From the NCBI GenBank assembly GCA_045536935.1, contig JAZSOO010000027.1:41418-105417 (forward strand): a stretch of DNA of 64,000 nt, written 5' to 3'. The translations under genes were made by a program, and so were the position numbers. Numbering within the stretch: the first letter of the stretch is position 1; each line of letters starts with the position of its first letter. The notes under the pieces are model-generated. The model did no database searches and was not told where the DNA came from. It was given only the letters and a program-made list of their open reading frames with translations. Below are positions 18,933-31,757 of the stretch, piece after piece. The stretch comes from Eubacteriales bacterium (GTDB lineage Bacteria > Bacillota > Clostridia > Oscillospirales > CAG-382).

Positions 18933-18935
18933 AAC

Positions 18936-19011
18936 CGCCCTTAGCTCAGCCGGATAGAGCAACGGATTCCGATTCCGTAGGCCGGGGGTTCAAATCCCTT
19001 AGGGCGGGCCA
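18936..19011 (+). tRNA. tRNA-Arg (anticodon CCG)
   Basis: Acceptor CCGCCCT/AGGGCGG, D arm GCTC-AGCCGGATA-GAGC, anticodon stem ACGGA/TCCGT with loop TT-CCG-AT, TPsiC GGGGGTTCAAATCCCTT, encoded CCA. Confidence 0.85.
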
Positions 19012-19013
19012 AC

Positions 19014-19054
19014 AAAGAAGGAACTTTTGTCTACCAAAAGTTCCTTCTTTGTTT
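19014..19054 (+). terminator. rho-independent terminator after tRNA-Arg
   Basis: Perfect 16-bp stem AAAGAAGGAACTTTTG / CAAAAGTTCCTTCTTT with a 5-nt loop, followed by GTTT. Confidence 0.8.
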
Positions 19055-19056
19055 AT

Positions 19057-19246
19057 CCAAGCCGCAGGCTTGGTATATCATCACGCGTCAGCGTGTATAT
19101 CATCGCCGTAGGCGCATATCATCAGCCGAAGGCTGTATTCTCTGCGGCTTGATGAGATACAACACTTCGTGTTGATGACATACCGCAACAAGTTGCGGAT
19201 GATATACAAGGCTTCGCCTTGATTTGTTTACGATAGGATGATATAA
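19057..19246. repeat. mini-hairpin array A: ~21-22-nt modules (TATATCATC box + GC-rich hairpin), four forward and four to five inverted
   Basis: Boxes TATATCATC at 19074 and 19096, CATATCATC at 19115. Inverted boxes GATGAGATA at 19151, GATGACATA at 19174, GATGATATA at 19198 and 19237. They alternate with hairpins at 19057-73, 19082-95, 19104-14, 19124-34, 19161-73, 19183-98 and 19208-20. Confidence 0.75.
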
Positions 19247-19404
19247 TAAACTGACCGATAAATATGAATTTGACTATTCATCGCTCAGCGCGTTGCAATA
19301 GATATATAACGGAAAGGATGATTGTTTATGAGAAAAAATATGAGCGGTGTCTGGAGGATGCACAAAAACTAATCCTCCAATACAATTTAACGGAGGTCAC
19401 AAAG

Positions 19405-19824
19405 ATGGATTTTGTGAAAATTAAAACAAAAAATTTTGAAGAACTAATGAAATTACAAAAGGCATACAAAGTAGAAATTGGAGAATGCATGCCTACCGAT
19501 GCAGAACTTGAAAGCTTAAGAAATGCGATTGAGAATGAACAGATACATTTTTATGGATGTATCTGTGATAACTCCCTCATAGCGTGTTGTTCAATATGCT
19601 TTACTTACTCAACTTTTAATTATGGTAAATCTGGAGTGTTTGAAGATTTTTACATTCAAGCAGAATATCGTCATAAGGGTATTGCACGAAAACTTGTTTC
19701 TTATGCGTATGAGCAAAGTGGTGTAGGTTCCCTTACAGTCGGATGTGCAGATTGCGATGTAGAAATGTATCAAGCGATTGGTTTTGAAATTCCATTAGGA
19801 AATATGTTGGCGTTTGTAGAATAA
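19405..19824 (+). CDS. GNAT-family N-acetyltransferase
   Basis: 139 aa from ATG 19405 (GGAGG RBS at 19392-19396). Acetyl-CoA motif A: YRHKGIARKLV. The tracked ORF start at 19264 has no RBS. Confidence 0.8.
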   Translation: MDFVKIKTKNFEELMKLQKAYKVEIGECMPTDAELESLRNAIENEQIHFYGCICDNSLIACCSICFTYSTFNYGKSGVFEDFYIQAEYRHKGIARKLVSYAYEQSGVGSLTVGCADCDVEMYQAIGFEIPLGNMLAFVE

Positions 19825-19847: not shown

Positions 19848-19889
19848 AGTTGAAAAAAGCACTTGCTTTCGCAAGTGCTTTTTTCAACT
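19848..19889 (+). terminator. rho-independent terminator of the GNAT gene
   Basis: Perfect 19-bp stem AGTTGAAAAAAGCACTTGC / GCAAGTGCTTTTTTCAACT with loop TTTC. Confidence 0.8.
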
Positions 19890-19894
19890 AAATA

Positions 19895-19990
19895 AATCCC
19901 TTGCGGGATTTGTGAAATACGCTTTGCGTGTGAAATATTGCTTCGCAATGTGATATGCCTGCGGGCGTGAGTGGATTTATTTCATTTCAC
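19895..19990. repeat. mini-hairpin array B: four hairpins spaced by TGTGAAATA-type boxes
   Basis: Hairpins AATCCC-ttgc-GGGATT, ACGC-ttt-GCGT, ATTGC-ttc-GCAAT and GCC-tgcg-GGC are separated by TGTGAAATA, TGTGAAATA(T) and TGTGATATG. An inverted ATTTCAC copy lies at 19984-19990. Confidence 0.65.
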
Positions 19991-20082: not shown

Positions 20083-20095
20083 TATTATGCTGTAG

Positions 20096-20192
20096 CACAA
20101 CTGACGGAAGATGCGGTTTACCGCAGGGGAGTGTTATGGGTATAAGCCGACCGTCTGGGCAAATCAGCATCACTGATTTGTCCTTTTATTTT
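20096..20192 (+). promoter_or_regulatory. ZTP riboswitch (pfl motif) with intrinsic terminator expression platform
   Basis: CACAACUGACGGAAGA-UGCGG-UUUA-CCGCA-GGGGAGUG parallels the conserved GACUGGCG...GGGAG 5' subdomain. 3' CCGACCGUCUGGGCA parallels CCGCCUGGGCA. GACGG (20103-07) is complementary to CCGUC (20151-55), giving the pseudoknot. Terminator stem 20158-67 / 20173-82 plus a T-run shares the GGGC of the aptamer. Confidence 0.8.
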
Positions 20193-20212: not shown

Positions 20213-22444
20213 ATGGAACACAATAATTGGAATGGTTTTAAAGGCGAACTTTGGAAGAACGAAATTAACGTTCGTGACTTCATTCAAAATAACTATGAAG
20301 AATATTGCGGTGACGATAGCTTTTTGGCAGAAGCAACCGAACGCACAAAAACTCTCTTTAAAAAGCTTCAATCTCTCTTTGCTTTGGAACGACAGTTTGG
20401 CGGTGTTTTGGATATTGATACCGATACGGTTTCATCTCTTACGGCTTATGCTCCCGGATATTTAGATAAAGAAAATGAATTGATCGTTGGTTTGCAAACC
20501 AACCGACCTTTGAAGAGAGGTCTTAATCCCTTCGGCGGTATGCGTATGATGCAGCAGGCTTGCGAAGCGTACGGCTATAAAGTTAGCCGTAAGGTCAAGG
20601 AAGAATTTACTTTCAGAACAACACACAACGACGGTGTTTTCAGAACCTACACGGATGAAATGCGTGCAGCTCGTAAATGTCACGTTATAACCGGACTTCC
20701 TGATGCTTACGGTCGAGGAAGACTTATCGGCGACTATCGCAGAGTTGCTCTTTACGGCGTAGACAGACTTATCGAAGAGAAGAAAAAGGATAAAGCCGAC
20801 CTCACAAATAAAACCTTCAATACAGAAGTAATTCGTATTGATGAAGAGCTTTATAAGCAGATAACCTTTTTGGGCTATATGAAGGATATGGCTCAAATGT
20901 ACGGTTACGATATAAGCGGACCTGCTTCTAATGCACGTGAGGCTATTCAATGGACCTATTTTGCATATCTTGCTGCCATTAAGGAACAGAACGGTGCCGC
21001 AATGTCTTTGGGCAGAGTCAGCACTTTCTTTGATATTTACATTCAACGTGACATCAATAACGGTATTATTACCGAAGTCGAAGCGCAGGAATTGATTGAC
21101 GATTTCGTTATGAAGCTTCGCATGGCACGCCATTTGCGTACCCCCGAATATAACGAGCTTTTCGGCGGCGATCCCATGTGGATCACAGAAGCAGTCGGCG
21201 GTATGGGTGATGACGGCAGAACTCTTGTTACAAAGAGCAGCTATAGAATTCTTAATACTCTCTATACTCTCGGTTCTTCTCCCGAACCCAATTTGACAGT
21301 TCTTTGGTCGACTTCCTTGCCTGAAAACTTCAAGAAATTCTGTGCAAAGGTTTCTATCGATACCGACTCTATTCAGTACGAAAACGATGACGTTATGCGT
21401 CCTCTTTATGGCGACGATTATGCTATCGCTTGCTGTGTTTCCGCAATGAAAATCGGCAAGCAGATGCAGTTCTTCGGTGCAAGATGTAATATGCCCAAGC
21501 TTCTTCTTATTGCGCTTAACGGCGGTTACGATACCACCTGCGGTATGCATATCGGACCTCAAATGCCCGTTCTCGATACTGAAAAGCTTGATTATTCGGA
21601 AGTTTCGGAAAGATTCGACATATATTTGAAATGGCTTTGCGCTTTGTACGTAAACACAATGAATATAATTCATTATATGCATGATAAATATGCGTACGAA
21701 AAGGTTCAAATGGCTCTCCACGATACCTATGCAGAGCGTTTTATGGCGTTTGGTATTGCAGGCTTGTCGGTTATGGCCGATTCTATGAGCGCTATCAAAT
21801 ATGCAAACGTTCGTCCTATCAAGAATGAAAACGGATATATAGTTGATTTTGAAACCACGGGCGAATTTCCGAAATTCGGTAACGATGATGACCGTGTTGA
21901 CTTGATTGCAAAAGAAATGTCGCACAAAATGATTACCGAATTGCGCAAAACACCCACATACAGAAATTCGACACATACTCTCTCTGTTCTTACTATCACC
22001 TCGAACGTTATGTATGGCAAGAATACCGGCGCAACACCCGACGGAAGAAAAGCATCTGCACCCTATGCACCCGGCGCAAACCCTATGCATAACCGCGAAG
22101 AGAACGGTGCACTTGCTTCGCTTAACTCGGTTGCAAAGATCGATTATAACGATTGCCGTGACGGTATTTCCAATACCTTCTCGATAACTCCCGATGCGCT
22201 CGGCAGAGACGATTCGGAACGTGTTGTAAACCTTGTTTCCATACTCGACGGCTATTTCGCAAAGAAGGCGCATCATATTAACGTTAACGTTATGACTCGT
22301 GAGCTTCTTATGAAGGCTTATGAAAACCCCGAGGATTATCCTAACCTTACAATCCGTGTTTCGGGCTATGCAGTTAACTTTAACAAGCTTTCCCGTGAAC
22401 AGCAACGTGAAGTTATAAGCCGAACCTTCCACGAAGCAATATGA
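20213..22444 (+). CDS. pflB: formate C-acetyltransferase (pyruvate formate-lyase)
   Basis: 743 aa with glycyl-radical motif TIRVSGYAV near the C-terminus and the active-site CC pair (IACCVSAMK). Confidence 0.97.
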
Positions 22445-23154
22445 ACGAAATAATCTACGGTAAAATTAATTCGATACAGAGCCTCGGTACCTTAGACGGT
22501 CCCGGGGTTCGCTTCGTTGTATTTACACAAGGCTGTAACCTTCGCTGCGGTTGCTGCCATAACCCCGATACTTGGAATATTTCTGAAGGAACAGAAGTTT
22601 CTTCGGAAGAAATTATAAAAAAAGCCGTTCGTTTTAAGGAATACTTCGGAAAAGACGGAGGTATCACCGTTTCGGGCGGTGAACCGCTGTTACAGCCAAA
22701 TTTTGTAAGTGACGTTTTTATAAAAGCACATAAAGAGGGAATTAATACCTGTCTTGATACCTCGGGAAGTATATTGAACGACGATATAAAAATACTTCTT
22801 GAAAATACCGACAGAGTTTTGCTTGATATAAAATATACTAACGACGATGACTACAAAAAATACGTTGGTTGCAGTATCGCAAAGCCTTTGGAGTTTCTTG
22901 AATATCTTAATTCAAAAGGAATCCCCACAACAATTCGTCAGGTTATAATTCCAAGTCTTAACGATAACGATGAAAATATCGCTGAATTAAACGAAATCAA
23001 GAACAAGTTTTCATGTATAGAGAAAATCGAACTCTTGGCATTTAAAAAGATCTGTAAAGTGAAATATGATAAGCTTGGACTCGAATTTCCGTTTGAAATC
23101 CATGCAGCACCTTCAACAGAGTTAATGAAGGAATTACAAGAAAAGCTAAAATAA
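22441..23154 (+). CDS. pflA: pyruvate formate-lyase activating enzyme
   Basis: Radical-SAM cluster [13 protein letters not shown] and [13 protein letters not shown]. Overlaps the pflB stop. Confidence 0.95.
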
Positions 23155-31375: not shown

Positions 31376-31757
31376 GATGCAGCTCCTTTATCATATTCAA
31401 AAAAACATCAATTTTTTCTTCGTTGAATACATATACTTTTTCTTTACCCCATCCCGAGAACTCTCTGTTCTTTTCAATATAGCTTATCCCGTTTTTGCTA
31501 GTAAAGATGTCGTTTATGTTAGCTGAAAAATAATTCAAATTTCTAGCTTTTTTGTCATGTAATACCCAGACAAAATATAATTGTAGTTCTTTAGAATACC
31601 CGATAATAAATAATTGTTCTTCTTTTCTTGCTAAATGGCTCGATCTGCATTTGATTCTGTTGTTTTTCAAATTAGCACTATAAACAAAATTGAAAACTCT
31701 TTCAAAGTCTATATTTGTATTATTACAATGCAATATAAAGTTTTTTGCGTAATCCAT
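31356..31757 (-). CDS. 133-aa protein of unknown function, first gene of the islet operon
   Basis: AAGGAG RBS 6 nt upstream. Its last 20 nt overlap the start of the 565-aa gene (translational coupling). No recognisable family. Confidence 0.8.
   Translation of the reverse strand: MDYAKNFILHCNNTNIDFERVFNFVYSANLKNNRIKCRSSHLARKEEQLFIIGYSKELQLYFVWVLHDKKARNLNYFSANINDIFTSKNGISYIEKNREFSGWGKEKVYVFNEEKIDVFLNMIKELHHEISVK

Follow-up and report, generated by a model that had tools for sequence, protein, structure and literature searches.

The window analyzed here, a stretch of 64,000 nucleotides (nt) from the genome of an Eubacteriales bacterium, holds between a tRNA-Arg(CCG) gene (18935–19011, plus strand; ARAGORN and Rfam tRNA) and a GNAT acetyltransferase gene (19405–19824, plus strand; Pfam) an array of short GC hairpins joined by A/U-rich linkers, referred to below as Array A. 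An architecture parse places 19055–19224 as a canonical member of a large element family, and this family, of which the window array is a single copy, is chromosomal, multi-copy, and found in gut Clostridia (Oscillospiraceae, Acutalibacteraceae, and relatives). Our best guess, drawn from comparative sequence analysis, is that the array serves as a protein-bound, strand-symmetric boundary element.

Array A is preceded by T0 (19011–19053, no strand), a perfect hairpin of 19 bp whose arms, one rich in A and the other in T, are 100% complementary; T0 qualifies by structure as a bidirectional intrinsic terminator and separates tRNA-Arg(CCG) from the array. The element itself begins on the plus strand with the tetramer ATCC (19055–19058), unvarying in all 41 aligned elements, and the terminal hairpin H7 (CCAAGCC-GCA-GGCTTGG, 19057–19073, plus). 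The remainder of the tRNA-proximal half, also on the plus strand, consists of a linker TATATCAT (19074–19081), hairpin H6 (19082–19095), a second occurrence of TATATCAT (19096–19103), hairpin H5 (19104–19114), a linker CATATCAT (19115–19122), and hairpin H4 (19123–19135). A short spacer with a degenerate linker, TATTCT (19136–19141, plus), leads to the central segment X′ (CTGCGGCTTG, 19142–19151, plus), which complements the 5′ arm and loop of H7 (19058–19067). The distal half lies on the minus strand, with linkers ATGAGATA (19152–19159), ATGACATA (19175–19182), and ATGATATA (19199–19206) alternating with hairpins H3 (19160–19174), H2 (19183–19198), and H1 (19207–19221); on that strand it reads hairpin followed by YATNTCAT. 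Viewed as boxes, the minus-strand motif GATGATAT(A/G) occupies 19074–19082, 19096–19104, and 19115–19123, and plus-strand boxes occupy 19151–19159, 19174–19182, 19198–19206, and 19237–19245, with box-to-box spacings of 19, 22, 23, and 24 nt. An earlier description of this DNA from its letters alone (the original prediction) had listed these hairpins and boxes together with two exact complements, 19096–19104 with 19198–19206 and 19058–19067 with 19142–19151, all of which are present.

The original prediction asked for shuffled controls, and the counts confirm that the array is real. A three-box pattern occurs twice in the 64-kb window, once on each strand and both times within the array, and in none of 100 dinucleotide shuffles. 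The density of short GC hairpins peaks at the 200 nt of the array, where there are 10 against at most 5 elsewhere in the 64 kb, and the predicted folds lie well beyond those of shuffled sequences (z-scores of −5.3 for the plus strand and −7.6 for the minus strand). No second such array was found in the 64-kb window, the next-densest hairpin region (at 62.5 kb) being coding sequence. The array is thus beyond chance because of the shuffles, the hairpin density, the folding z-scores, and its recurrence in more than 100 unrelated genomes.

This recurrence emerged from a genome scan with a strict three-box pattern, one genome per species, which returned at least 120 matches, all but about 8 of them true arrays; at least ∼110 true loci lie in metagenome-assembled genomes (MAGs) of gut Clostridia, and metagenomes add 60. 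Among the matches listed, the host MAGs are Clostridia of human, ruminant, and other guts, belonging to the Acutalibacteraceae, Oscillospiraceae, Ruminococcaceae, and unclassified Eubacteriales. The module architecture picked out in the window belongs to many unrelated genomes; a genome- and metagenome-wide search had been suggested in the original prediction as a check. A regular-expression parse yielded 43 canonical elements from the genome scan and 103 unique ones once metagenomic loci were added, and in all 103 the order of parts is identical to that of the window array: T-run, ATCC, H7, three YATNTCAT modules, central X′, three ATGANATR modules, and ATT. Over a length of ∼170 bp this gives four hairpins (H7–H4) with YATNTCAT linkers, a central 10-mer complementary to the first hairpin, and three ATGANATR-plus-hairpin modules. 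The dominant box pattern is ‘−−−+++’, three per orientation, and the reverse order was never seen among the genome-scan matches listed.

In a MAFFT and RNAalifold alignment of 41 elements, conservation is restricted to the linkers, which are invariant (YAUNUCAU is near-invariant across more than 100 species), and the same 41 elements contain 126 distinct hairpins. The hairpins of one element differ among themselves despite their positional identity across species, of which H2 (CAATTCC...GGAATTG) is an example; H1–H3 and H7 of the window array are identical to those of another locus (L143). Module counts vary among copies (2+1, 3+3, 4+3, and 3+5), and in L211 modules have been shuffled between its two array copies. 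One further locus, L180, carries two arrays (304–398 and 658–753) 350 nt apart, the first broken inside H5 by unrelated sequence and the second intact, which suggests an insertion into a hairpin loop of the first. A subfamily (L149 200–260, L221 2960–2995, L148, L166, L188, L195, and L204) has a conserved stretch of ∼50 nt after H1 that contains a T-arm-like GAGTTCGAA or GAGTTCAAGTCC, plus AAAATATCTTTTTTG; this stretch could be a decayed copy of a tRNA or tmRNA 3′ end (an attachment (att) site remnant) or another small element.

Viral sequences were scanned as well. A first, loose three-box viral scan returned nearly exclusively coding tandem repeats of giant viruses, and a tighter pattern left two real cases. 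One is a phage contig (L018, 8630–8790; also L122 and L127, identical contigs) in which six hairpins, linked through ATGATATG, form an array of one orientation only; this array ends in GATTTGG and a strong terminator and lies between a RusA-like resolvase gene with a small Cys-rich open reading frame (ORF) and the small and large terminase genes. A phage origin of the family was considered and rejected, as L018 and the two contigs identical to it are the sole phage context found; L130, the second of the two viral cases, and L138 are host DNA past a prophage att site, which in L130 lies in a tRNA.

The setting behind a terminator is shared across the family. The arrays typically stand behind tRNA or tmRNA operons, past the final gene: in 49 of the 83 evaluable elements (59%) a co-directional tRNA or tmRNA ends 31–43 nt before ATCC, and at least 14 tRNA amino-acid identities, as well as tmRNA, precede canonical elements. 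The hairpin that intervenes between tRNA and array is, across the family, a bidirectional intrinsic terminator, with an upstream A-run in 76 of 83 copies and a T-run of at least four before ATCC in 71 of 83. In the canonical set the H7 end always faces the terminator, and the array is attached to the downstream side of a terminator that most often ends a tRNA, tmRNA, or rRNA-tRNA operon. Arrays behind tRNA-Arg(CCG) are retained in several species.

At its other end the element is often fused to a promoter. In the window, TTGATT (19219–19224) and TATAAT (19242–19247) are separated by 17 nt and form a plus-strand, TG-extended promoter of the sigma-70 type (19219–19247; 10 of 12 matches), which appears to serve the downstream GNAT gene. 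The −35 hexamer consists of the last three bases of the 3′ arm of H1 and the conserved ATT, and the spacer ends in TGA. Over the family, a TAnnnT hexamer, mostly TATAAT, lies 16–18 nt downstream of TTGATT in 14 of 40 parsed elements and at exactly 17 nt in 12, and −10-like hexamers peak sharply 17 nt after TTGATT (28 of 97 distinct flanks). The isolated last box (19237–19245), originally counted as a further module, overlaps the TG-extended −10 element, and the degenerate box before it also falls inside the promoter. The window promoter region resembles that of L189, where the next gene encodes a four-helix-bundle protein; in many relatives such a gene, of family PF05635, takes the place held here by the GNAT gene. 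Other window neighbors are housekeeping in character: an acyl-CoA synthetase-type AMP-binding enzyme, the tRNA, the GNAT gene, and pflB/pflA. A ZTP (pfl) riboswitch (20087–20167, plus strand) with a near-consensus promoter precedes pflB (20213–22444) and pflA (22441–23154) in an ordinary, known arrangement, and farther downstream, at 31561–31625, the space between ORFs holds 1.9 tandem copies of a 33-nt repeat (AATACCCAGACAAAAAATAATTGTACTTCTTTAG).

The alignment of 41 elements enabled us to ask which of the possible pairings in the array is selected. The hairpin stems show heavy two-sided covariation, so that the proposed conserved modular unit, a box plus a variable hairpin whose pairing is kept by compensatory change, is borne out, as is the view that the two halves repeat a single kind of module in inverted orientation. 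Pairing in the H7 helix stands at 99%, three of its pairs have changed on both sides, and its loops on the tRNA-sense strand are GAAA (21), GACA (9), and GCA (5). Read on the folding strand, 36 of the 126 hairpins have GNA triloops and 24 have GNNA tetraloops (60 of 126 together); each module has a hairpin with a closing C-G and, in most cases, a GNA or GNRA loop, after which comes the fixed 8-nt linker YAUNUCAU. A kink-turn or C/D-box reading of UGAUGA was rejected, the Rfam matches to archaeal sR1, sR10, and sR14 being at chance level (E 0.1–2.8) and a partner CUGA strand being absent.

The 10-nt complement between 19058–19067 and 19142–19151, singled out in the original prediction, is also a selected feature of the family: it is 99% paired, four of seven core pairs are compensated, and none of 500 shuffles matched its score. 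The resulting long-range helix has 11–12 contiguous pairs in 34 of 41 elements, extending into the H7 loop, and occurs in several covarying types, including the single-base variants CAAGTC/GACTTG and CAAACC/GGTTTG. The proximal half could, on this comparative evidence, be closed by a covarying long-range helix of 10–12 bp, which competes with the local H7 hairpin for the same segment.

Non-Watson-Crick pairs bear on the strand that folds. Stems read in the direction box-then-hairpin contain 20 C.A/A.C pairs versus 3 G.T pairs; the wobble-tolerant strand is therefore the one that reads hairpin (with its GNA/GNRA loop) and then YATNTCAT. On the tRNA-sense strand, hairpins H7–H4 contain 23 G.T and 5 A.C pairs, whereas H3–H1 contain 4 G.T and 15 A.C pairs (Fisher test of the proximal versus the distal half, elements oriented by the terminator, p = 5.5e-5). 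An earlier small replicate was ambiguous for the distal half, and we regard the pooled, position-specific count as decisive. It follows that the strand on which folding is selected is the tRNA-sense (plus) strand for the proximal half and its complement for the distal half. With its halves on opposite strands, one RNA bearing both in functional form is therefore unlikely, and pure duplex recognition is unlikely as well.

Pairing between boxes behaves differently from pairing within hairpins. The original prediction proposed that forward and inverted boxes pair in nested order, leaving the hairpins as side arms of serial four-way junctions, but there is almost no compensation at the variable box positions: the nested partners at alignment columns 60/177 are unpaired in 16 of 41 sequences, those at columns 101/148 are unpaired in 19 of 41 with 2 compensated, and at a variable position C stands opposite T 26 times and pairs as C:G twice (C4:T5 versus C4:G5). 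The boxes are complementary simply because one conserved motif is present in both orientations. Nor does the 21–22-nt period, interpreted originally as two helical turns, extend to the family, where box-to-box spacing is 19–40 nt; because of this range, helical phasing is excluded. Folding of the hairpins juxtaposes neighboring linkers at any hairpin length, making the spacing irrelevant.

Array A has no match in Rfam at gathering thresholds. At relaxed thresholds its minus strand (19070–19144) matches the Gut-1 RNA motif (RF01706) with 26.9 bits, against a gathering threshold of 50 (E 0.003–0.009); the match spans the full length of the model but only half the length of the array. None of 18 other array loci reached the Gut-1 threshold, whereas Gut-1-type arrays did. 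A bona fide Gut-1 motif, with hairpins joined by GUGAAAU linkers (19885–19961, plus strand; RF01706, 76.2 bits versus a gathering threshold of 50), is present in the window directly behind the GNAT terminator, 700 nt from Array A. The GNAT gene is accordingly flanked on both sides by sister array types, and the window Gut-1 has a fourth hairpin followed by short inverted ATTTCAT/TTTCAC boxes. Gut-1 was reported from human-gut sequences, with nothing more said of it (Weinberg et al., 2010; PMC2864571), and our full-text searches found no literature on it beyond the 2010 catalog. Its 2010 seed alignment includes a tRNA, a terminator, and GUGAUAU-linked hairpins, followed by inverted AUAUCAC modules.

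Gut-1 is the nearest known relative of the Array A family, which comparison of the two array types shows to be a sister of Gut-1 rather than a member. Both consist of tandem GC hairpins whose stems covary and differ from each other, with a conserved A/U-rich linker of 7–8 nt; both come from gut Clostridia, where they are placed immediately behind an intrinsic terminator that frequently belongs to a tRNA; and in each, a half-copy of the terminal hairpin stands at the center, between inverted halves. The linkers are related yet distinct (GUGAAAU/GUGAUAU in Gut-1, AUGAUAUA/YAUNUCAU in Array A), and module polarity relative to the terminator and closing helix is reversed (‘++++−−−−’ in Gut-1, ‘−−−+++’ in Array A). 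Two loci (L206 6990–7037 and L200 5888–6011) carry ATGATATA-type modules in Gut-1-like polarity, box-then-hairpin, directly after the terminator of a tRNA or gene; polarity is therefore not strictly bound to linker type. The wobble-strand count in Gut-1-type arrays is 1 versus 1, with few informative pairs, and since Gut-1 has no assigned function or partner, the comparison gives no mechanism. The family is absent from Rfam, and full-text literature searches turned up nothing on such an array. The original statement that this is not a described repeat family stands in this sense and needs amending in that a described, sub-threshold relative, Gut-1, exists.

The most valuable new lead came from the genes beside the arrays. 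When ORFs in the flanks were clustered, just two neighbors proved widely recurrent: an ABC transporter, at 12 loci, and a protein of 115 residues, at 14. The 115-residue protein is assigned both to PF05635 (“23S rRNA intervening sequence protein”, E 2.9e-18) and to TIGR02436 (“four helix bundle protein”). Among PDB entries a relative is 2RLD, which holds five chains of this sequence. At 10 of the 14 genome-scan loci the order is array, promoter, gene, with the gene starting ∼60–90 nt past the array, and the gene in these 10 loci is probably driven by the array-fused promoter. In a reverse test, metagenomic loci were retrieved via the protein: of the 64 with enough upstream sequence, 60 have an array at most 330 nt upstream (59 of these 60 in two orientations), and the remaining four have degenerate or truncated arrays. 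Array–protein units follow at least 12 different tRNAs, so synteny with any single tRNA does not simply account for the adjacency. The protein subfamily is very large and highly conserved, with 3743 homologs, the best 120 of which are all at least 79% identical. The window itself contains no PF05635 gene, its array being an orphan copy with the GNAT gene in that place. PADLOC gave no meaningful match for the four-helix-bundle protein, leaving a link to defense systems unsupported.

Several loci near this gene deserve mention in their own right. Three near-identical four-helix-bundle loci (L308, L315, and L309, upstream of position 1501) have arrays that are shortened (2+1) or reduced to just H1 fused to another gene, probably reflecting fast change of module number by deletion between repeated linkers. 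In L311 the four-helix-bundle gene (1502–1845) overlaps the next ORF (1843–2276) by ATGA; the N-terminus of the second product is pyroglutamyl-peptidase-type in look, which suggests a two-gene operon behind the array.

PF05635 resembles Avd of the diversity-generating retroelements, and members of the family ride inside stable-RNA operons as 23S intervening sequences (PMC10053308). Avd is a pentameric barrel; in its cryogenic electron microscopy structure an RNA stem-loop is gripped by all five protomers, between which flipped-out bases are held (bioRxiv 10.1101/2023.10.23.563531). The protein linked to the arrays falls in the same family as Avd (PF05635/TIGR02436), but no reverse transcriptase, template repeat, or variable repeat lies near the arrays, and the putative ligand is a repeated linker–hairpin array.

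Overall we favor, at somewhat below even confidence, a model in which the folded strands of the array show their linkers to a pentameric Avd-like protein and so form a two-way boundary. The element would act as folded single strands rather than as duplex DNA. These strands would most likely be RNAs, namely tRNA-strand read-through leaving the operon and opposite-strand transcripts running toward it. The hairpins would serve as clamps that present three to four single-stranded linkers side by side, with hairpin length immaterial, to a multimeric protein, the best candidate for which is the Avd-like pentameric four-helix-bundle protein (PF05635/TIGR02436) whose gene lies immediately behind one such array. 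The likely outcome would be a boundary acting in both directions. Transcripts that cross the end of a very strongly transcribed operon would be stopped, processed, or sequestered there, and the adjacent promoter would thereby be insulated. A wider proposal, that Array A and Gut-1 arrays alike are cognate ligands of free-standing Avd-like pentamers, in a hitherto unrecognized ribonucleoprotein or single-stranded DNA (ssDNA)–protein system that in gut Clostridia marks both strands where tRNA, tmRNA, and rRNA operons end and acts there as a two-way transcriptional boundary, appears to us a tentative one, rather doubtful as it stands.

The proposed mode of recognition has parallels in the way that it would work, though not in its parts. 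In the TRAP/trp leader and CsrA/CsrB-RsmZ systems a multimeric RNA-binding protein reads many short single-stranded motifs. Copies of the motif occur in those systems at regular topological intervals, and the effects are on termination or sequestration. The motifs, proteins, and contexts are unrelated to those considered here; the spacers are not obligatory hairpins, and one strand is used.

Several observations weigh against this model of RNA bound by an Avd-like protein. A strong terminator precedes the proximal half, so that sense RNA would arise only from read-through, and no convincing antisense promoter was found: a −10-like hexamer on the other strand overlaps the sense −10 in 26 of 97 flanks, without a −35. 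YAUNUCAU makes a poor U-tract, and a simple terminator scan of the plus strand flags just H4 and H1. C-GNA-G triloops and a wobble frequency of ∼1% of pairs suit DNA hairpins equally. The link to the protein is purely genomic, with the gene beside only ∼10 of at least ∼110 genome-scan arrays and none in the window. Finally, the opposite polarity of Gut-1-type arrays is not predicted by a simple “first-encountered half” model.

The main rival is an ssDNA element of the repetitive extragenic palindrome (REP), bacterial interspersed mosaic element (BIME), or REPIN kind, the modules of which would be recognized on the lagging-strand template or other transient ssDNA by a strand-specific enzyme, for instance of the HUH/Y1 type, or by the four-helix-bundle protein; inverted halves would ensure a functional copy for either fork direction, and copies would spread or be homogenized at the DNA level. 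We consider this unlikely, though it accounts for a good deal. The arrays are multi-copy, extragenic, and post-terminator, with inverted halves and a mosaic character (the shuffling in L211 and varying module numbers), and a terminator-plus-array unit stands behind many different tRNAs. The halves use opposite strands without an obvious antisense promoter, wobble pairs are rare, and the most frequent loops (36 of 126) are C-GNA-G triloops, which as DNA give mini-hairpins of exceptional stability. The likeness to REP and BIME sequences extends to short extragenic palindromes with an adjacent motif, inverted mosaics, multiple copies at the 3′ ends of transcription units, and units that are each functional on their own strand. 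In proteobacteria, however, REP, BIME, and REPIN palindromes are conserved in sequence and associated with RAYT (Y1 transposase) genes, whereas the array stems all differ, within and between copies, the linker alone is conserved, and the linked gene encodes a four-helix-bundle protein. No transposase, RAYT, or integrase is recurrent in the 8-kb flanks of at least ∼110 loci, nor is a rep or par cluster, and the ssDNA explanation is left with no candidate enzyme. Position-specific hairpin identities are kept across species, as in an orthologous functional element, GNRA tetraloops dominate H7, and general target-site duplication is not seen. The original alternative of a REP/BIME-like element or a structured RNA pointed in the right direction, and although most of the structural speculation in the original prediction is wrong, its instinct of an undescribed repeat or RNA family is upheld.

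A single discrete, structured small RNA (sRNA), Gut-1-like and transcribed from one strand, might instead act in trans, perhaps by sponging up an RNA-binding protein, with its second half pairing with or masking the first. Gut-1 is catalogued as an sRNA and its model matches the minus strand as described above; the predicted folds are very stable; read on the minus strand, the element would have a good terminator at its end; and an inward −10-like hexamer is present in some flanks. This reading is nevertheless improbable. The wobble bias flips between halves, such that neither strand bears both in selected form, box–box pairing is uncompensated, the clear distal promoter is directed away from the array, and unidirectional arrays are known in other contexts. 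An antisense sRNA gene, with a right-hand extended −10 and T0 as its terminator, was rejected as the sole explanation: the promoter reads better in the plus direction, and it is the plus strand that is selected in the proximal half.

Equally improbable is a protein-independent fail-safe, in which stacked weak hairpin terminators or 3′-exonuclease blocks would act in both directions behind the main terminator of a very strong operon. On either strand a transcript would meet GC hairpins, each trailed by an 8-mer rich in A and U, the terminator scan picks out H4 and H1, the design is symmetric, and the arrays are placed behind stable-RNA operons and beside promoters. Bidirectional intrinsic terminators, of which T0 is a canonical example within the unit itself, share the position at transcription-unit boundaries, the symmetry, and the combination of GC hairpins with A/U-rich tracts. 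In contrast to these, the array modules lack a proper U-tract, have an invariant linker, and come in threes and fours with a covarying long-range helix. AU-richness alone would not hold YAUNUCAU near-invariant in more than 100 species, and the fail-safe leaves both the covarying long-range helix and the tight coupling to one protein gene unexplained.

We consider a mobile or integrative element resembling a miniature inverted-repeat transposable element, which would insert at the T-run behind tRNA terminators with the inverted halves as its terminal repeats, to be very improbable. The window copy lies between two identical, directly repeated 8-bp sequences, TTTGTTTA (19048–19055 and 19223–19230), that resemble a target-site duplication, array units stand behind many different tRNAs, T-arm-like remnants follow some copies, and a prophage att fragment lies beside the L130 copy. 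In other copies, however, the flanks mismatch, the left being the terminator T-run and the right a conserved ATT(T), belonging both to the element and to the −35, beyond which the sequence varies; the window repeat is probably just the terminator T-run and the conserved ATTT end. There is no recurrent mobilizing gene, and arrays behind tRNA-Arg(CCG) are kept in several species. The least credible explanation of all, a protein-binding array on duplex DNA (iteron, centromere, or operator) or a cruciform ladder of serial four-way junctions, draws on the mutual complementarity of boxes in the two halves, the nested box–box helices drawn by RNAalifold, outer box pairs that are perfect 8-mers in 24 of 41 elements, and three boxes upstream of a promoter, but is already largely refuted by the unphased 19–40-nt spacing, the lack of compensation at variable box positions, hairpin covariation and strand-specific wobble that duplex recognition does not explain, unidirectional arrays without partner boxes, and the failure to find rep or par genes near the window array or recurrent at other loci, with which the original iteron- or centromere-like suggestion also falls.

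If the proposal that the arrays are ligands of Avd-like pentamers were true, it would give PF05635/TIGR02436 its first function outside diversity-generating retroelements. The array family offers a handle on two orphans: Gut-1, a probable RNA without a role since 2010, and the very large PF05635/TIGR02436 family, of which Avd is the sole understood member. The near-obligatory adjacency of one PF05635 subfamily to the arrays makes binding and function directly testable. For annotation, the arrays donate −35 elements to neighboring genes, as seen where a “fifth box” is read instead as a promoter. The halves of one 170-bp element, selected to fold on opposite strands, form an unusual selective signature, which poses the choice between convergent RNAs and transient ssDNA. 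In the gut Clostridia, the arrays constitute an unannotated and very common feature at the 3′ boundary of stable-RNA operons.

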